In this document: piece after piece, positions 21,109-32,176 of the stretch | Numbering within the stretch: the stretch's first letter is position 1 | Layout of the letters: each line of letters opens with the position of its first letter | Source of the DNA: Promethearchaeia archaeon | Lineage (GTDB): Archaea; Asgardarchaeota; Lokiarchaeia; Sigyniarchaeales; SOKP01 | NCBI GenBank assembly: GCA_029856045.1 | Contig: JAHQWG010000047.1 | Span: 32,001 to 96,000 of the forward strand | Reading direction: 5' to 3' | Length of the DNA stretch: 64,000 bases | Position numbers and translations under genes: made by a program | The notes under the pieces: model-generated | Database searches by the model: none | Told to the model about the DNA's origin: nothing | Seen by the model: the letters and a program-made list of their open reading frames with translations, nothing else

Positions 21109-21900
21109 ATGAAACGCGATCAAGAACTCATTGAACGACTTCAAAGGCATAATATTAAGGGAGTTATATTTGATTTTGATGGAGTGCTCCTTGACGTTAG
21201 AGAACCTCTTAATGAAGCAGTTGATAAGGTTTTCAATAAACGCTCTATTAATGTAAACATGGATGTTGCATTACAACAAATCGGTGCAGTTTTAGAATCA
21301 GTTCAAGGATATCCAATGTCCCAAATAATACTCCAATCTTACCAAATGTTCAAATACGTTACCGTGCTTGAAAATTACCGGTTATTTAAAAAATTAAGGA
21401 TTGCTATAGAAATTTTTGCTAAATATCAAGAACTTACAAAAGAAGCAAAATTCCATCTAGGCTCAAAATTACTTTTAGAAACTCTCTCAAAACATTGTGA
21501 TCTTTTTATTATATCACATAATATTACAGAAAGTGTCTTACGCCATTTAAAGCGGGAAGAACTTGAGGGTTATTTTCTAGATATTTACGGTCAAGATAAG
21601 CTCCCAGCACTAAAACCAGACCCTGCAAGTGTTGAACCTCCCTTGAATCATTACAAATCCTACACCAAAGAGGATTTTATTGTTATTGGAGATATGCCTT
21701 CAGATATTGAAGCAGGTAAAAAAGCAGGTTTCTGGACAATAGGAGTATTGAGTGGTCTTTGTAATAGGGAGCTTTTAGCTGAATACGAGCCAGATTTACT
21801 ATTAGAATCAATTGCTGATATCCTTACTTTGCTTGGAGTCGATACTGGTCGCATTACTAAATCTCAAGCTCATAAAAAGTTAAAAACAGAATCATCATGA
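21109..21900 (+). CDS. HAD-superfamily phosphatase
   Basis: FDFDGVL, SHN, KPDP, GDMPSD motifs. Confidence 0.9.
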   Translation: MKRDQELIERLQRHNIKGVIFDFDGVLLDVREPLNEAVDKVFNKRSINVNMDVALQQIGAVLESVQGYPMSQIILQSYQMFKYVTVLENYRLFKKLRIAIEIFAKYQELTKEAKFHLGSKLLLETLSKHCDLFIISHNITESVLRHLKREELEGYFLDIYGQDKLPALKPDPASVEPPLNHYKSYTKEDFIVIGDMPSDIEAGKKAGFWTIGVLSGLCNRELLAEYEPDLLLESIADILTLLGVDTGRITKSQAHKKLKTESS

Positions 21901-21911
21901 GGTAATAAAAA

Positions 21912-23585
21912 ATGGAAATGGAAGAAATCGATCTCGAAAGTTTGTCTATACAAACAACTAAAGCAGAAGAAATTAAAGATGAGAAGAAGCATGTCTCTGG
22001 CGCTTCAAAACAATTTCAAGAAATACTTAATTTTATCTTGAAATATAATCCGATTGATCCTTTAAATAGGCTGGTTAGGAAATTTTTCGGGACATTTGAT
22101 CTATTAGATAAAACCGATAGACTGTTTTATTGGGGTGCATTTCCAATAATTCGAAATATTTGTCGAATGTATTGGAATATGCGAGTTGAAGGAGAAATGT
22201 TTCCAGATTACGGTGGCGGAATAGTTGCATCAAATCATGTTTCACATTTAGATCCTTTCTTTGTCAGTTCAGCCGTTCAGAGACGAATTCGTTGGATGAG
22301 TAAAATTGAAAATTTTGAAACACCATTAGTGACGACACTCTTTACAAATCTTGGAGCTTTCCCCTTACATCGTGGGGAGCAAGATTTGAAAGCTTATAGT
22401 ACAGCAACAAAGATTATTTTAAACGGTGAATACTTAGGTATGTTTCCAGAAGGAACTCGTTCATATGATGGTATTCTCAAAGAAGAATTTCATACAGGTA
22501 CAATTCGATTAGCGGTAGAAACAGGTTGTCCAATTGTTCCAGCTTGCGTATTAGGAACCGCTGGTGCTTTGGCTAAGGGTAAATTATTAATGAAACCTAC
22601 ACAAGTGCTTGTTCGCATTGGAAAACCAATATATTACACTGATTACTACGCAAAAGAACTCACCTATCCAGATGCTAAGAAATTATCGGATGATCTCAGA
22701 GAAAAAATCAAAGATTTAATTCAAATGGGGTATAGCAAGGGATTAGAGAAAGATCCTGAGCTCTCTATAGAAAATCTATCAGATATGATAAAATTCCAAA
22801 AAAATGATGCATTGAAAAGTCATTTAAAACCCAAAACTACTGCTAAAAAAATTCTAAAATTCATCGATGATACATGGTATGGATTTTTGAGAGCTTTAGA
22901 AGTTTTTGATTTGCGAACACACTTTCAAGAAGCAATACAAATGTTTTCTGGAAACCTCGTGCATCAGTTGTGTAATACTTTAATTCCATATAAAACCATT
23001 GACTTCGATAAATATATTCCAAAAGAAGGAGCCGCCGTGATTGCTCCAAGTCATAATTCTGAATGGGACGTAATTATGATTGCTACAGCTATTACTCAAA
23101 AACCAAAACGAATATTACATCAGATGTCTAAACAATCACTATTCAGAACTCCGATTGTAAATGCATGGGTTAGGAATCATCATGCTTTCCCACTTAAACG
23201 AGGTGGACATGATGTAGAGAGTTTTCTTTATGCTAAAGAACTGCTAGAAGCCGAACAACTTGTGTGTACATATCCGGAGGGAACTACAAATCCTGGTAAT
23301 GGTCAACTTTTAGAAGGACATACAGGAGCTGTTCGATTAGCAATAGAGGCAAAAGTTCCAATCATTCCAGTTGGAATTACTGGTACTGAGAATATATACC
23401 CCAAACACGCAAAGATGCTCAATTTCGGAAAATCATGTGTATTGAAAGCGGGAGAACCTTTTATGGAACATGCAAAATATTGGGATGCACCAGAAATGCC
23501 ATCATTTGAAGTGTTAAAGGATTTAACAAGTAAAATGATGGCTCGAATTAAGGATTTACAAGTTTACAACTCACCAGGTCTGTAA
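21912..23585 (+). CDS. plsC: Tandem two-domain PlsC-family glycerolipid acyltransferase
   Basis: Domain 1 has NHVSHLD and FPEGTRS; domain 2 has SHNSEWD and YPEGTT. Confidence 0.9.
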   Translation: MEMEEIDLESLSIQTTKAEEIKDEKKHVSGASKQFQEILNFILKYNPIDPLNRLVRKFFGTFDLLDKTDRLFYWGAFPIIRNICRMYWNMRVEGEMFPDYGGGIVASNHVSHLDPFFVSSAVQRRIRWMSKIENFETPLVTTLFTNLGAFPLHRGEQDLKAYSTATKIILNGEYLGMFPEGTRSYDGILKEEFHTGTIRLAVETGCPIVPACVLGTAGALAKGKLLMKPTQVLVRIGKPIYYTDYYAKELTYPDAKKLSDDLREKIKDLIQMGYSKGLEKDPELSIENLSDMIKFQKNDALKSHLKPKTTAKKILKFIDDTWYGFLRALEVFDLRTHFQEAIQMFSGNLVHQLCNTLIPYKTIDFDKYIPKEGAAVIAPSHNSEWDVIMIATAITQKPKRILHQMSKQSLFRTPIVNAWVRNHHAFPLKRGGHDVESFLYAKELLEAEQLVCTYPEGTTNPGNGQLLEGHTGAVRLAIEAKVPIIPVGITGTENIYPKHAKMLNFGKSCVLKAGEPFMEHAKYWDAPEMPSFEVLKDLTSKMMARIKDLQVYNSPGL

Positions 23586-23608
23586 GTGGTTCGAGGTTTT
23601 CAACTAGA

Positions 23609-24727
23609 ATGCAGTCGAAGAAAACGACAAACCAACGAGAACTAAAACATTTAAAAGATGCATTGGAATCTTATCGATATGACCAGAAATCGAAGATCAA
23701 AGTGGGCATTCCCCGAGCTCTTCATTTTTATAGGTTTTTTCCTTTTTGGAAAAAATTATTGGAAGAGTTAGGTTGCGAACTTATACTTAGTCCTCACACT
23801 AATAAACAAATAGTGGAAGAAGGGGCTTTTCAAGGATTTGGGGAACTCTGCTTGCCTGTAAAAGTATATTATGGGCATACATTATATTTAATTAGAGAAC
23901 ATCCCGAATTGGATTATATTTTTGTCCCACGATATGTATCCGAGCGAGTAGAGGGATATTTTTGTCCTAAGTTTTTATCACTCCCCGACGTTATTAGAAC
24001 CTTGCCAAATATCCCCAAAATCTTAACCTTTACTGTTAATGTGAAAGAAAATCCAATCTCAAATTCAATTATTTCACTTGCTAAAACGCTTGGAAAAGGA
24101 CAACGCGAAGCCTTACAGGCATATGAAATAGCAAAAAAATACCATAAACAATATCAAGACTTCTTGAGAAAAGAAATCCCCGTCGGATATGCATTAAAAC
24201 TTGTAGAAAAAGACAAACCTTTTAAAATACTTAAAAAGAAAAGCCCTAAAAATATCAAATTTCTCTTACTTGGGCATGGATATAATATTTTTGATACCTT
24301 TGTAAATCTAGATTTTCAGAAAAAACTAACTAAACATGGAGTAGATGTGCTAACTATTGAAAATTTACCAGAAATTCTATTCAAGGAGCCAGTAATTATT
24401 AATAAGCAATTTAGACCGTATTGGCTTCATGAAGATGAAATCTTAGCCGCAGTTAGATATTTTCTAGTCCAAGGACGTAAAGAGATTGACGGAGTCATAT
24501 TTCTAATCAGCTTTGCGTGTGGTCCTGACAGTTTGATAGCTGAGTTAATTATGAGAGACATGAAAGTGATCGGGCTTCCTTTCTTGCAGATAATAATGGA
24601 TGAGCATACAGGTGAAGCTGGACTGCTAACAAGAATCGAAAGTTTCGTGGAAATGATTAAGCGGAAAAAAAGAAAACTAGATGCAATGAAAGAAAAGCAA
24701 GATTTAAAAATCTTTGAAGTAGCATAG
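23609..24727 (+). CDS. DUF2229 acyl-CoA dehydratase activase-related Fe-S protein (PlsA/Ger reductase-domain-like)
   Basis: VGIPRAL, CLPVKVYYGH, FCPKF, SFACGPD, DEHTGEAGLLTRIESF. Confidence 0.85.
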   Translation: MQSKKTTNQRELKHLKDALESYRYDQKSKIKVGIPRALHFYRFFPFWKKLLEELGCELILSPHTNKQIVEEGAFQGFGELCLPVKVYYGHTLYLIREHPELDYIFVPRYVSERVEGYFCPKFLSLPDVIRTLPNIPKILTFTVNVKENPISNSIISLAKTLGKGQREALQAYEIAKKYHKQYQDFLRKEIPVGYALKLVEKDKPFKILKKKSPKNIKFLLLGHGYNIFDTFVNLDFQKKLTKHGVDVLTIENLPEILFKEPVIINKQFRPYWLHEDEILAAVRYFLVQGRKEIDGVIFLISFACGPDSLIAELIMRDMKVIGLPFLQIIMDEHTGEAGLLTRIESFVEMIKRKKRKLDAMKEKQDLKIFEVA

Positions 24728-24986
24728 AAAAAAACGAAGGGAAATAAATTTATATGCAAAAAATTTATGGCAATTTAAATTTAAAGCGTCATTTTCTAAG
24801 AATTCTAAAAATATGAAATAATTCATAATTTTTTTATATGATCTTACCTATTTGTATAGAAAGTTATTTGAGAAAATATGTTTGCATTTAATTATTAAAA
24901 AACTCGAGAAAATAAAGTCTAATAGAGATATAGCTTAGAGCTAATGATTCAAAGTATAAAGATAGAAGAGGAGCAATAAGAATTTA

Positions 24987-26177
24987 ATGATAGTATCATT
25001 TCCAAACATGGGATATAGTTGGCCTGCTTTCAAGACTCTCATTGAGTGTATGGGTGTGAAAGTGGTATTACCAGATCCCACAAATCGTGAAGCTGTGAAA
25101 ATCGGAGTCAAATACTCTCCTGAGTTTGTCTGCTTTCCCTTTAAAGCAACTCTTGGAGATTTTGTAAGTGCGATTAAAAAGGGAGCGGATACTTTGGTTA
25201 TGGCTATAGATTGTGGCCCCTGTAGATTTGGATTTTACCATGCTGTTCAAGAACGTATTTTACATGATATGGGATATAAAGATGTCCGTGTGATACCTCT
25301 TGACCAAGCAGACTTATTAGAATTTAAATGGGTAAAAACCTTGTTTGAAGTAACTCCAACAAAAAATCTATTTCTATATACAAAAGCTGTTAAAGCAGTT
25401 CAATATTTTATAAAAAAAACCAAATATATTGATGATATTTCGACCGCAGAGGGATTAATCCGATGCTATGAACGAAATAAGGGGGATACCACTCGGGTTG
25501 TAAAGAAACTCCTAATAAAACTTGATGAAACTAATAAAATAAATGAATTACGCAAATTCAAATCTGTTATCACAAATGAGTTTAAAAAAATTGATATAGA
25601 CCGAAGCCGCAACCCTTTGAAAGTGGCATTATCAGGAGAGATCCATATCACATTAGAGCCAAATGATAATCTCGATATTCGTCGCAAACTCGGTGAAATG
25701 GGAGTTCAATTATATCAAAACCTAAGTGTTTACGATTGGGTTATTCATAAATTTCATTTAAATTATCATAGAAAATGGTTGGAATATTTAGCGCGTCCTT
25801 ATATGCCAATGGATATCGGGGGTGAAGCCGTATGGGTTATTGGCGAGTACATCGACAGAGCAAGGTCTGGTTTCGATGGTTTCATCCATGCATATCCTTT
25901 CACCTGTATGCCTGAGATCAGTGCTAGAACCATTATAACGAACGTATTACATAAAAAATATGATTTGCCAATAATTTACTTCTCATTTGATGAACATGCT
26001 GCTGAAAGTGGCTTCAGAACACGTTTAGAAGCGTTTGTAGATTTAATTCAAGGAAGGAGAGAACAAAAAAAACATAAGAAGGAAATTAAATTAGAAGAGA
26101 AATCAAAAGAGCCCTTATATGAGATTCATGGGGGTAGTCTATATAATAACATAGTGCAATTTATTCAAACAGGATAG
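24987..26177 (+). CDS. 2-hydroxyacyl-CoA dehydratase-like subunit (PlsR-like)
   Basis: FPNMG, CFPFKATLG, GPCRFGFY, GEIH, PFTCMPE, DEH...TRLEAF. Confidence 0.85.
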   Translation: MIVSFPNMGYSWPAFKTLIECMGVKVVLPDPTNREAVKIGVKYSPEFVCFPFKATLGDFVSAIKKGADTLVMAIDCGPCRFGFYHAVQERILHDMGYKDVRVIPLDQADLLEFKWVKTLFEVTPTKNLFLYTKAVKAVQYFIKKTKYIDDISTAEGLIRCYERNKGDTTRVVKKLLIKLDETNKINELRKFKSVITNEFKKIDIDRSRNPLKVALSGEIHITLEPNDNLDIRRKLGEMGVQLYQNLSVYDWVIHKFHLNYHRKWLEYLARPYMPMDIGGEAVWVIGEYIDRARSGFDGFIHAYPFTCMPEISARTIITNVLHKKYDLPIIYFSFDEHAAESGFRTRLEAFVDLIQGRREQKKHKKEIKLEEKSKEPLYEIHGGSLYNNIVQFIQTG

Positions 26178-26190
26178 GTATTTATGAAAT

Positions 26191-27219
26191 ATGGTTCAAG
26201 TTAACGAAAAAATACACGTGTCAAAAGATGGAAAGCGTGATAGTTATCTAGGTATAGATGTTGGGTCGGTTACTCTCAAATTTGTATTAATGGATAATGA
26301 TCAAAGGGTTTTATCTAATGTTTTTTTGCGAAATCAAGGCAGTCCAATAGATTCCGTCAAACTTGGAATGGCAGAAATGAGGAGTAAAATTGAGAAAAAT
26401 CCAGAGCTGCAGGAATATGCAATAAGAGCTTGCGGAACAACAGGGTCAGCAAGATATTTAACCAAGGCGGTGGTCGGAGGAGACCTTGCCAAAACGGAGA
26501 TTATAGCTCACGCGGTAGCAACCCAATCGATGTACCCTGATGTGAGAACGATCTTGGAAATTGGGGGTCAGGACTCTAAAATAATAATTTTAAGAGATGG
26601 AATCATTGTGGACTTCGCTATGAATTCTGTATGTGCAGCTGGGACTGGTAGTTTTCTCGATCACCAAGCAACTCGCCTTAATATTCCAATTGAGGATTTT
26701 GGTGATTATGCCGTGAATTCAAAAAATCCTGCTTCAATTGCTGGTCGATGCACGGTGTTTGCAGAATCGGACATGATTCACAAGCAAAATGCTGGATATT
26801 CAAAGGAGGATATTATTGCTGGGTTATGCGATTCTTTAGTAAGGAATTATTTAAATAATTTATCAAAAGGAAAAGATTTGGAAGAGCCTATTGTATTTCA
26901 AGGAGGAGTTTCATCTAATAAGGGTATTATTAAATCATTTGAACGACATTTAGGTTGTAAAATAACTGTTCCTGGGGGAGGTTTGAATGTATTAATGGGA
27001 GCGCTTGGAATGGCAATTCTTTCACGAGAATATTATATAAATAATGAAATTGATACAGTGTTTAGAGGGCTTAGAATGACTGATATTGATTTTAGGACGA
27101 GAACATTCAATTGTGGGGATTGCCCTAATAATTGTTCCATAGTAGAATGCTCCATCGTTGAAACTAATGAAGTTATTGCCAGATGGGGTAGCAGATGCGG
27201 TAAATGGGAAGTATTCTAA
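26191..27219 (+). CDS. CoA-substrate-specific enzyme activase (BadF/BadG/BcrA/BcrD ASKHA ATPase)
   Basis: GIDVGS, EIGGQDSK, CAAGTGSFL, RCTVFAESD, FQGGV; C-terminal CxxCxxxC...RC. Confidence 0.92.
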   Translation: MVQVNEKIHVSKDGKRDSYLGIDVGSVTLKFVLMDNDQRVLSNVFLRNQGSPIDSVKLGMAEMRSKIEKNPELQEYAIRACGTTGSARYLTKAVVGGDLAKTEIIAHAVATQSMYPDVRTILEIGGQDSKIIILRDGIIVDFAMNSVCAAGTGSFLDHQATRLNIPIEDFGDYAVNSKNPASIAGRCTVFAESDMIHKQNAGYSKEDIIAGLCDSLVRNYLNNLSKGKDLEEPIVFQGGVSSNKGIIKSFERHLGCKITVPGGGLNVLMGALGMAILSREYYINNEIDTVFRGLRMTDIDFRTRTFNCGDCPNNCSIVECSIVETNEVIARWGSRCGKWEVF

Positions 27220-27344
27220 GGAGGAGAGAAACGATAGAGAGATTTAATATTATTTCCAGAATTATAGATTATTTTTCGGTCAATAAATTCTTTATATATA
27301 TTGTAAGGTTAAAAAAAAATGAATAAAAAAGAGTTGTTTTAGAG

Positions 27345-27539
27345 ATGTCCAAATTTTTTGAACAATTAATTGATATGGGAAAAGAATATTTAGACACTTT
27401 AAAGCATAAGACAAAATTATCAACCATATTTGATTATTTTACGGAAACAGTGATACCGAATTTTGTATCTGAGAAAGATTTAAAATCATTTTATGAAAAA
27501 CGTATGGATGAATTAAATGAATTTATATATAAATTGTAA
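27345..27539 (+). CDS. Small helical hypothetical protein
   Basis: 64-aa ORF, co-oriented and 16 nt upstream of the next gene. Confidence 0.6.
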   Translation: MSKFFEQLIDMGKEYLDTLKHKTKLSTIFDYFTETVIPNFVSEKDLKSFYEKRMDELNEFIYKL

Positions 27540-27555
27540 AGAGAGGTAAAGAAAT

Positions 27556-28341
27556 ATGGAATCGAATAGTAATGAAAAATCTGAGATAACAAAAGTTGAT
27601 AAGCCAGTTTCTCTTGAAGAAGAAAAGGAGTCCGAGAAAGTGAATATGAAAGCGGTGACTGGTGATTTACTTTATGGAGCCTTAAAATATATTGGTGGTT
27701 CTGCGTTAATGTTATTTAACGATTTAGCAATTAACGGCCAGGAAAATGTTCCGTTGTTCGGAAAAGCAATTCTTTCAACGATTAGTAAAAATGTGATGCT
27801 TGATATGCTCATCATAAGTCAAGTATCCGGAAGAAAGATACATTTTATGTTGCCCGTAAAACTAATAAGAAATCCTGTTGCTGGGCCAGTTTTAAAGATG
27901 TTAGGAATGTTTCGAAGTACAGAGAATAAGGAAGATATGGAGCCTATCGAGAAAGTTTTCGATTATTTAAACAAAAAGGGTGATCTTGTGGCGATGACAC
28001 CTCAAGCGAAAGCATCTGACGAGGTGCAGCTCAAGTCAATGGCAGCGATTATAAAGTTTGCAGTTGCTGCTGATGCACCAATAATTCCTTTAGCGATATA
28101 TACAGAACAGAAGACGTTGTTTAACATCATTCCTAGTACTAAGCTAAAAATGAAGATTGGTACTCCAATTAATTTCGATAAGAAATTAAATAAGGATAAA
28201 TTTAGAGACGAGAGATATAAACAAGCTGCGGAAATCATAAAGATTATCGATGTTCTTCGGATTGAAAGTAAGGAAGAAGCCGAGAGAGAAGAAAAAGAAA
28301 AGGAAAAAGAAAAAGAAGAAAAGAAAAATCAGAAAGTTTAA
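27556..28341 (+). CDS. PlsC-fold protein with degenerate catalytic motifs
   Basis: GQENVP, IHFM, APIIP, KIGTPI fit the fold; HX4D is replaced (SKNVMLD) and PEG reads PQA. Confidence 0.75.
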   Translation: MESNSNEKSEITKVDKPVSLEEEKESEKVNMKAVTGDLLYGALKYIGGSALMLFNDLAINGQENVPLFGKAILSTISKNVMLDMLIISQVSGRKIHFMLPVKLIRNPVAGPVLKMLGMFRSTENKEDMEPIEKVFDYLNKKGDLVAMTPQAKASDEVQLKSMAAIIKFAVAADAPIIPLAIYTEQKTLFNIIPSTKLKMKIGTPINFDKKLNKDKFRDERYKQAAEIIKIIDVLRIESKEEAEREEKEKEKEKEEKKNQKV

Positions 28342-30266: not shown

Positions 30267-31364
30267 TTAAATCCTTTTTTTTAAAATATTCGCTTGTTCC
30301 TTAAACGTATATGAAAAAAAGTTCTTATAACTTTCACAAAAGTATGTTTTTTCTGGATGTGGATTATCTGTGAAAAATCTATCTTTGAGACATCCTCCGA
30401 AACACAATTTTTTCCATTCACATTCCAAGCAGTCTTGAGGAAGTTTTTCTTTTTGTATGGCAAATGTAGTGTTGCGTTTTTCAATTAATTCTGCAAAACT
30501 ATTTTGCATTATATTCCCTAATTTATATTTTTCATATACAAAAAAATCACAAGGATATATATCTCCGTTCCATTCTACAACCATATAATTTGCACATTTT
30601 TCCTCGAGAGCGCAGTATCCTTTTGGATATCCTAAATGACCAGCCAAAGTTGCATCGAAAGTTCTTATTGATGCTTTTCGATTAGAATTTATCCACTCGT
30701 CGTAGAGGTCACATAAAAATTTACCATACTGGGATGCATTAATGCAATAAGATGCTTTTTTTCCTGTCTTATCTGCTTCAAGAGCGGGAATAAATTGCAA
30801 ATAATAAAAACCGTTATCAATGAAGAAATTATAAACCTCCCTAACTCGATTGACATTTGCTTTACTTACGACACATAATATATTGAATTCTACATTGTTT
30901 TTTTTTAAGCATTCAGTGGTTTTCATTACTTTTTCCCAAATTGACTTACTGCCAATACTTTTTCTATAACGATCATGGATTTGCTTAGGACCATCAAGAC
31001 TTAAGCCAATCAAAAAGTGATATTCATTAAAAAATTTTCCCCAATCATCGTTAATAAGAATTCCATTAGTTTGAAGAGCATTTCCAATTACTTGCCCAGA
31101 GATACCATACTGTTGTTGGAATTCTACAACTTTTTTATAGAAATTGAGCCCAATTAAAGTAGGTTCCCCGCCTTGCCAATTGAAAACAGATTCATTAAAA
31201 CGATATTGCAAGAATTTTGATATTATTCTTTCGAGAACTTTATAATCCATACGAGGGTGTACATTATTTGAATATAAATCAGCCACTCTCAAATAAAAAC
31301 AATACTTGCATCTTAGATTACAATCAAAAGAGACTGGTTTAATTAAAAGTTGGAAAGGTTCCAT
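30267..31364 (-). CDS. Anaerobic sulfatase maturase (radical SAM/SPASM)
   Basis: KPVSFDCNLRCKYCFY, WQGGEP, YPCDF, CxxC...C.GGC. Confidence 0.9.
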   Translation of the reverse strand: MEPFQLLIKPVSFDCNLRCKYCFYLRVADLYSNNVHPRMDYKVLERIISKFLQYRFNESVFNWQGGEPTLIGLNFYKKVVEFQQQYGISGQVIGNALQTNGILINDDWGKFFNEYHFLIGLSLDGPKQIHDRYRKSIGSKSIWEKVMKTTECLKKNNVEFNILCVVSKANVNRVREVYNFFIDNGFYYLQFIPALEADKTGKKASYCINASQYGKFLCDLYDEWINSNRKASIRTFDATLAGHLGYPKGYCALEEKCANYMVVEWNGDIYPCDFFVYEKYKLGNIMQNSFAELIEKRNTTFAIQKEKLPQDCLECEWKKLCFGGCLKDRFFTDNPHPEKTYFCESYKNFFSYTFKEQANILKKRI

Positions 31365-31408: not shown

Positions 31409-32176
31409 TTATTTTTTATTGTATTCAATTTCGACAATTTCAACAATTTTTGGAAGAATTTCTGCGATACTTCCATGTATGACAACAAGACATTGATGGT
31501 CAATATTTGTTTTTTCTCTATTTATTATGCCTAATTTGGCATCAACGTTTAAAGCTTTATATGGTAAAAAATTTGCCGGTGATACTAAAAGGCTTGTGCC
31601 CAAAATCATCATTAAGTCACAGTTTGCAATTAGGTCATCAGTTCTTTCAAGTGCTTCTATAGGTAATTGTTCTCCAAAAAAAACTGCATTTGGTTTTAAA
31701 ATACCACCACAATCAGGACATTTTGTTGATGGGTTTCTACTTAATAATTGAGTAACTAGAGTTGTTATAGGAAATATTTTTCCACATTTCCCCATGCATA
31801 TCGCTTCATTTATACTACCGTGTAATTCAATTACATTTTTAGTATGAGCTCTTTTGTGTAGACCATCTATATTCTGGGTCATTAACCCATTTAATTTTCC
31901 CATTTTTTGCAATTTTGTCAGGCTTTTATGGCCTGCATTTGGTTTAGCTTTAATCATATTAAGACCCATTTCTAACATCGTCTTATAGAACGCAGTTGGA
32001 TTTCGCGTAAAAGTAGATATATCTGCAAATGAAGGATCCATTCGCTCCCACAATCCTGTGCCGGGACTGCGAAAATCTGGAATACCGCTTTCTGTGGACA
32101 TCCCCGCTCCAGTAAGCGCTAATATATTTTCTGATTCAAGTATTAATTCAGCAAATTTTTGAAATTTTTCTTTCAT
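31409..32176 (-). CDS. cobB: Sir2-family NAD-dependent deacylase
   Basis: TGAGMSTESGIPDFRS, TQNIDGLH, ELHG, zinc ribbon, GTSL. Confidence 0.92.
   Translation of the reverse strand: MKEKFQKFAELILESENILALTGAGMSTESGIPDFRSPGTGLWERMDPSFADISTFTRNPTAFYKTMLEMGLNMIKAKPNAGHKSLTKLQKMGKLNGLMTQNIDGLHKRAHTKNVIELHGSINEAICMGKCGKIFPITTLVTQLLSRNPSTKCPDCGGILKPNAVFFGEQLPIEALERTDDLIANCDLMMILGTSLLVSPANFLPYKALNVDAKLGIINREKTNIDHQCLVVIHGSIAEILPKIVEIVEIEYNKK

Follow-up and report, generated by a model that had tools for sequence, protein, structure and literature searches.

Fused enzymes of the PlsA/Ger type produce plasmalogens or alkyl ethers from ester lipids (PMC13159169, PMC9702350, PMC12838417), and the published layout of both PlsA and Ger is Act1-Act2-Red1-Red2 (PMC12838417, PMC13159169). 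PlsA/PlsR is encoded by CPE1194/1195 in Clostridium perfringens, with a single-gene PlsA in Enterococcus, Lactococcus and Bifidobacterium; Ger, which has the fused BBDHDDH architecture, is represented by Tmari_0479 of Thermotoga maritima and SHJ90043 of Desulfatibacillum alkenivorans. A fused BBD core, consisting of two activase modules and Red1, is conserved in all confirmed alkyl-ether producers (Sahonero-Canavesi et al., PMC13159169). Ger homologues have already been reported in Lokiarchaeota and Heimdallarchaeota (PMC13159169), and PlsC has been reported in Lokiarchaeota (PMC6737245). A 2026 review still calls the lipids of Asgard archaea an open question, and the lipid divide is a central unsolved problem for models with an Asgard-like archaeon as the eukaryotic host.

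Here we describe an operon in a stretch of 64,000 nucleotides (the window; contig JAHQWG010000047.1 of assembly GCA_029856045.1, forward-strand positions 32,001 to 96,000) from the genome of an uncultured lokiarchaeial archaeon. Seven co-oriented open reading frames (ORFs) occupy positions 21109-28341 of the plus strand, as a preliminary description of this DNA had listed them, and belong, with one correction given below, to the families named there. In order, they encode a HAD phosphatase, a tandem PlsC-family acyltransferase (PlsC2), two Fe-S subunits (DH1 and DH2), an activase, a small protein of 64 aa and a PlsC-fold protein that lacks the catalytic His, separated by gaps of 11, 23, 259, 13, 125 and 16 bp. 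Our reading, to which we give a probability of about 0.5, is that this conserved operon makes and modifies acyl-glycerolipids, and that its reductase performs an ester-to-ether reduction like that of PlsA and Ger. Earlier inventories listed PlsC and Ger homologues separately; here they are coupled physically and evolutionarily in an operon of about 7 kb. The novelty first claimed for the locus was overstated, since Ger homologues (PMC13159169) and PlsC (PMC6737245) had each been published from Lokiarchaeota before, and a literature search found no paper on the conserved operon, the tandem PlsC or the split architecture.

The split reductase and its relation to PlsA and Ger

Domains of the window proteins were assigned by Pfam and NCBIfam profile searches. 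DH1 (372 aa, 23609..24727, plus strand) is a Red1-like subunit with a full DUF2229 domain (153.6 bits), and against HGD-D (PF06050) only the last 60 or so positions (281-342) matched, with 27.8 bits against a cut-off of 28.4. DH2 (396 aa, 24987..26177, plus strand) matched the N-terminal part of DUF2229 (38.2 bits) and the same C-terminal tail of the HGD-D profile (25 bits, cut-off 28.4). The gene that had been called an HGD-dehydratase-like subunit is therefore present, although not as a canonical HGD-D protein: it is a DUF2229 paralogue of DH1 and is Red2/PlsR-like. The third member of the trio is a single Act2-like activase ATPase (342 aa, 26191..27219, plus strand) of the BcrAD_BadFG family (PF01869, 149.7 bits; TIGR00241, 187 bits). 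The domain families PF01869, PF09989 and, in fragments, PF06050 are shared between the trio and Ger, and the activase, DUF2229 Red1 and Red2 modules of PlsA/PlsR are likewise all found in the window.

Proteins of about 1,350-1,490 aa that were found with DH1 are collinear with the window's genes; approximate module boundaries are 1-260 for Act1, 300-640 for Act2, 650-990 for the module resembling DH1 and 1000-1400 for the one resembling DH2. By hhalign, DH1 aligned with module 3 of these fused proteins over 306 columns (E 9e-61, probability 100) and DH2 with module 4 over 344 columns (E 4.9e-41, probability 100). Against the host's own canonical HGD-D proteins, in contrast, DH1 aligned over 125 C-terminal columns with an E value no better than 1e-6, and DH2 gave no significant alignment. 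The match to PlsA, PlsR and Ger proposed in the preliminary description was thus borne out module for module by the alignments, the collinearity and the cysteine ligands, and the subunits do not group with the dehydratases of amino-acid fermentation, a possibility it had raised as a check. The host carries three canonical full-length HGD-D sets, which score 142-286 bits over the whole profile (G000:C36:264009-266298, C36:295239-297611 and C14:11680-13940, one of them an 839-aa frame with two HGD-D modules), and also a separate short activase without a Cys4 tail (listed with C15:78828-79622). These sets and the short activase suggest that acyl-CoA radical chemistry of the ordinary kind takes place in other parts of the genome's metabolism.

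Three Cys residues are invariant in each of the two subunits across every class, namely C81, C119 and C304 in DH1 (72 sequences) and C49, C79 and C307 in DH2 (68 sequences). Such a three-Cys [4Fe-4S] pattern is typical of HadBC-type enzymes. In the activase, the cluster Cys pair C148 and C187 is invariant in the sets of the window's family (f1), the split systems, Act1 and Act2. The C-terminal Cys4 tail (C308, C311, C315 and C336; CxxCxxxC...C) is invariant in split-type activases and occurs in Act2 of all 13 fused proteins (13/13), and it is absent from Act1 except for one Cys in one sequence. The trio thus resembles PlsA/PlsR in the three invariant Cys of each Red module, in the activase Cys pair and in a Cys4 tail like that of an Act2-type module, and both belong to the oxygen-sensitive BCR/HAD radical enzyme superfamily. 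An AlphaFold2 model of DH1 (pLDDT 89.7) gave as best Foldseek matches the beta subunit of HadBC (2-hydroxyisocaproyl-CoA dehydratase), DCCP, BzdNO and MbdON, with E values of 1e-10 to 1e-6 and TM scores of about 0.5, so the predicted fold is that of ATP-driven radical Fe-S enzymes. A sequence search of the PDB gave no match for DH2, and one over the C-terminal 60 residues only for DH1. With HadBC/HadI, HgdABC, BzdNOPQ, MbdONPQ and the double-cubane proteins the trio shares the fold, the principle of an ATP-dependent activase and the three-Cys cluster sites; it differs from HGD-D and benzoyl-CoA reductase systems in that only about 60 HGD-D positions match and in having no CoA-transferase or fermentation context.

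The differences from the described enzymes lie in architecture. Where PlsA/PlsR follows the order Act1-Act2-Red1-Red2 and Ger is fused, the window has three separate genes with one activase module, in the order Red1-Red2-Act. The published Ger screen accepted only hits covering at least 30% of a query of about 1,400 aa (PMC13159169), so that split subunits of about 350 aa probably escaped it. The published Asgard hits are probably fused proteins of about 1,400-1,490 aa; proteins of this kind were seen in Asgard family f4 and in Candidatus Harpocratesius, and not in the window's genome, where no other DUF2229 protein was found. A further difference is that the trio is embedded in an operon with acyltransferases and a HAD protein, which is not so for fused PlsA/Ger-type genes elsewhere: neither the fused genes of three other organisms nor the split trios of family f4 and of bacteria had acyltransferase or HAD neighbours. 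In bacterial relatives (P0124-P0133) DH2 is fused to DH1, which implies a complex of the two.

The acyltransferase genes and conservation of the operon

PlsC2 (557 aa, 21912..23585, plus strand) contains two PF01553 stretches (184.6 bits) with the motifs NHVSHLD/FPEGTR and SHNSEWD/YPEGT. HX4D and EGT are intact in both domains, and the motifs of the C-terminal domain are at least 95% conserved among orthologues. PF01553, HX4D and EGT are common to PlsC2 and bacterial PlsC (1-acyl-sn-glycerol-3-phosphate acyltransferase), from which PlsC2 differs by its two full domains in one chain, the lack of a PlsY/PlsB partner and the presence of a His-less third copy in the operon. The tandem architecture is rare, with one other full-length cluster among 1.84 billion representatives, and is almost confined to the archaeal family of the window.

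The first gene of the operon encodes a HAD-IA type phosphatase (263 aa, 21109..21900, plus strand; HAD_2, 80 bits) in which motifs I-IV (DFDGV, SH, KP-P, GDMP-D) are all conserved in 35 orthologues; it reached the cut-off of no NCBIfam equivalog model. The two last genes encode a conserved 64-aa protein with a conserved core and without a Pfam family (27345..27539, plus strand) and a 261-aa PlsC-fold protein (27556..28341, plus strand; PF01553, 33.6 bits) that has SKNVMLD in place of HX4D and PQAKAS in place of PEGT. All 21 orthologues of the latter carry S-x-N-x3-D for HX4D and MTP for PEGT, and many of its other positions are nonetheless at least 95% conserved. Since both motifs are gone in every orthologue, it was not counted as an active acyltransferase. 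A clear transmembrane segment was predicted in none of the seven proteins, PlsC2 included.

Among genomes of the window's family, 38 of 41 had DH2, 40 of 41 had the activase and 87 of 102 had PlsC2. Synteny was counted in 28 species-representative lokiarchaeial loci anchored on PlsC2. The HAD gene adjoined PlsC2 in all 27 loci in which the upstream side was present, and DH1 adjoined it in 27 of the 28. The complete seven-gene order was present in 12 loci, and 8 others end at a contig edge just past DH1. The 64-aa gene (52-92% identity in relatives) always lies between the activase and the PlsC-like gene, and the latter (41-90% identity) always occurs together with it. Chance is far from sufficient to explain the arrangement, since this gene order is seen again in many genera whose proteins are 45-80% identical. 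Ca. Harpocratesius repetitus, of the sister family f22, encodes on its closed 4.36-Mb chromosome a PlsC of 352 aa, a PlsC of 269 aa, DH1, DH2 and the activase, flanked by housekeeping genes; identities to the window are 47% for DH1, 50% for DH2 and 57% for the activase. This unfused PlsC-PlsC core indicates that the coupling of acyltransferase and reductase predates the fusion of the PlsC domains. The linkage to plsC, on which the preliminary description had relied, is thus conserved: the operon is kept in most genomes of one lokiarchaeial family and exists unfused in its sister family.

The host is archaeal and belongs to the Lokiarchaeia (Promethearchaeia), as had been supposed. A contaminating bacterial contig, or genes brought together by chance in a mis-binned metagenome-assembled genome (MAG), might otherwise be suspected, since PlsC-type genes for fatty-acyl glycerolipids are typically bacterial or eukaryotic and the contamination of the genome (3.34 Mb, 100% complete) is estimated at 3.5%. 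This explanation is refuted and retains practically no probability. A family-B DNA polymerase gene and a RadA-like (Rad51-family) gene flank the cluster on the same contig, and the same flanking genes are found on a 342-kb contig of a congeneric MAG; the GC content, about 30%, is uniform across the window; and the cluster recurs in the family at the frequency given above and on the closed Harpocratesius chromosome. Contigs with close relatives of the cluster are titled Promethearchaeota or Promethearchaeia, including CR_4, Loki_b31 and the AMARA bins, and the host genome encodes a clear GGGPS.

The spacer of 259 bp between DH1 and DH2 (24728..24986) is an insertion hot spot in relatives, in which this junction is filled by unrelated genes (0.03 to 6 kb) or by a paralogous set of reductase genes. 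Insertions recur at both the DH1/DH2 and the DH2/activase junction and amount to 1-9 kb (L014, L020, L021, L022, L024, L025, L079, L086), and several MAG assemblies also break there. The inserted genes were considered as a functional clue and rejected, being unrelated (regulators, an ABC transporter, Ras-like GTPases, histidine kinases, MFS, SDR). In one relative only, a 487-aa B12-binding radical SAM gene lies between the HAD gene and PlsC2 (L024:6186-7649, minus strand). Enzymes of the radical SAM type synthesise membrane-spanning lipids in archaea and bacteria.

Position in the superfamily and competing readings

The activase tree separated the single activases of split systems from Act1 and Act2 as one clade (SH-aLRT 95), with the window's family f1, Asgard family f4, the bacterial DH1-DH2 fusion systems and an FAD-fused paralogue as members. 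With Red2 modules as the root of the Red1 tree, the fused proteins grouped in one clade (SH-aLRT 100); the fused clade in these trees is defined by architecture, without the named reference sequences T. maritima Ger and C. perfringens PlsA/PlsR. Judged by these placements, the window system is a member of an uncharacterised split branch of the PlsA/Ger superfamily, for which the operon provides a first functional context.

Several observations weigh against an ester-to-ether function. The window DH1 lies outside the fused clade, as sister to the FAD-fused paralogue (SH-aLRT 99), and the window activase lies outside Act1 and Act2, in the single-activase clade (SH-aLRT 95). The affiliation with PlsA, PlsR and Ger put forward at first consequently stands as module homology and fails, in both trees, as a placement inside the fused Act-Act-Red clade. 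The BBD core is absent, the lone activase gene being placed after DH1 and DH2, and demonstrated activity is confined to fused or PlsA+PlsR-type enzymes, none of them of the split type. Because the fused genes and the split genes of family f4 and of bacteria have no lipid-gene neighbours, the lipid context rests on one archaeal order. At one locus (L081:9202-12408) the HAD, PlsC2 and His-less PlsC-like genes are adjacent and DH1, DH2, the activase and the 64-aa gene are missing; judging from its gene content, it looks like a natural reductase deletion that spared the acyltransferase part. No convincing GpsA (glycerol 3-phosphate dehydrogenase) was found in the host, a GpsA-like match being N-terminal only. 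Finally, lipidomics of a cultured Lokiarchaeon, a strain of a different lineage, is reported to have given archaeal lipids only (PMC13400652, citing Imachi 2020).

The position apart from the fused clade, in a split clade that is uncharacterised, could also be explained by a different chemistry. DH1, DH2 and the activase might carry out another ATP-driven radical reduction or dehydration, acting on an acyl-CoA or hydroxyacyl thioester that is later used by the acyltransferases, or on a lipid-bound acyl chain or head group, and the operon would then make or remodel ester, not ether, lipids. The superfamily spans dehydratases, aryl-CoA reductases and double-cubane reductases, whose substrates differ widely, the extra flavin domain of the sister paralogue points to varied chemistry, and an acyl-CoA dehydrogenase and an OYE-type reductase adjoin DH1 in some relatives. 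However, DUF2229-type Red modules are reported in the searchable literature, where the domain is mentioned in just four papers, only from PlsA/PlsR/Ger-type proteins, the cluster ligands, Cys4 tail and module order are all kept, and acyl-CoA chemistry in the host is already served by its three canonical HGD-D sets. We consider this explanation possible, though somewhat doubtful.

The FAD-fused paralogue, whose DH1 module is the sister of the window DH1, is absent from the window's genome. It belongs to a paralogous reductase set located after DH1 in some relatives (L085:13473-18249, also L071, L070 and L032), which is made up of a fusion protein of 806 aa (FAD_binding_4-DUF2229-HGD-D), an activase of 343 aa and a DH2-like protein of 444 aa. 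An assignment of its flavin domain as alkyl-DHAP synthase was rejected, as the match was weak (E 3e-5), ranked behind cytokinin dehydrogenases and DprE1, and the domain is of a generic PCMH type. Directly after this set, L085:18687-21623 holds a 979-aa ORF with a LAGLIDADG endonuclease domain, which may be an intein-bearing gene. In genus g2 (L026:12019-14976 and L092, from G008 and G173), a gene for a 985-aa Act1-Act2-Red1 protein, PlsA-like and of the BBD type, follows the split DH1 at a distance of a few hundred bp, so that split and fused systems coexist at one locus.

Proposed pathway and the supply of backbone and acyl chains

The pathway had been called self-contained, which the genes found do not support. 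PlsY was not found in a search of the host genome, which leaves the tandem PlsC as the main candidate for acylation; nor was a convincing GpsA, as noted above; and the Fe-ADH_2 and NAD_Gly3P_dh_N matches comprised a protein weakly resembling glycerol 1-phosphate dehydrogenase (120 bits against a cut-off of 413 bits), the N-terminal-only match to GpsA and ordinary alcohol dehydrogenases. Bacterial PlsY and PlsC accept both stereoisomers of glycerol phosphate (PMC13400652).

The failure to find PlsY or a convincing GpsA would also suit an operon that scavenges or remodels exogenous bacterial lipids by re-acylation of lyso-lipids, dephosphorylation and reductive modification, and makes no membrane lipids de novo. 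Lyso-lipids are commonly used by PlsC-family enzymes, and the organism occurs in marine-sediment and salt-marsh metagenomes, habitats in which bacterial lipids are plentiful. On the other hand, a single protein with two intact acyltransferase domains is suited to two acylations in succession, and the cluster is without a conserved lipase, phospholipase or transporter gene. Scavenging is regarded as unlikely.

For synthesis and modification of acyl-glycerolipids, the reading that we prefer, the data above show the gene content, the homology of each module, the conserved ligands, the fold, the archaeal host and the linkage to acyltransferases; what we infer concerns subunit assembly, substrate, product, acyl donor and backbone stereochemistry. 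The tandem PlsC would most likely add two acyl chains, presumably from acyl-CoA, to a glycerol phosphate or a lyso-lipid acceptor. A heterodimer of DH1 and DH2 is most likely, each subunit carrying a three-Cys [4Fe-4S] cluster, and the single activase would act as a homodimer in which ATP hydrolysis drives a low-potential electron into DH1/DH2. By analogy with PlsA/PlsR and Ger, the reductase would then turn an acyl ester carbonyl of the glycerolipid into a vinyl or alkyl ether. A phosphate on a backbone or head-group intermediate would be taken off by the HAD enzyme, and the His-less PlsC-like protein and the 64-aa protein would be non-catalytic accessory parts.

A more specific form of this proposal can be offered only tentatively: Lokiarchaeia of this order may make fatty-acyl-derived, non-isoprenoid ether glycerolipids by means of an archaeon-specific operon, with the split reductase acting on the products of the double acyltransferase, possibly on a non-canonical backbone or in hybrid isoprenoid/alkyl lipids. 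If so, mixed membranes would exist in archaea closely related to eukaryotes, in which, independently of bacteria, an acylation pathway would have come to include ester-to-ether chemistry. What had been a vague genetic potential becomes one clonable unit that predicts non-isoprenoid ether or ester glycerolipids, and the operon is a testable candidate route to non-isoprenoid ether lipids in these archaea.

None of the RNA datasets was listed as carrying the cluster. One run labelled metatranscriptomic (X20) has short contigs that agree exactly with stretches of PlsC2, DH2 and the PlsC-like gene; the run was flagged as probably DNA and was not used as evidence. A promoter and terminator scan of the window performed no better than on shuffles, and its consensus is bacterial and does not apply to an archaeon. 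Downstream of the cluster are a radical SAM/SPASM gene (30267-31364, minus strand) and a Sir2 gene, which are probably unrelated to the operon because they are syntenic only in the window's own genus (L012, L060, L061). The host also encodes a fourth PF01553 protein, a divergent one of 251 aa with an HX4D-like HEGGYD motif and an FPEG motif (G000:C34:13190-13945; L039:2190-2945), so that the operon holds most, not all, of the acyltransferase domains of the host. The gene for this divergent protein sits 3 kb from a 3-hydroxyacyl-CoA dehydrogenase gene.

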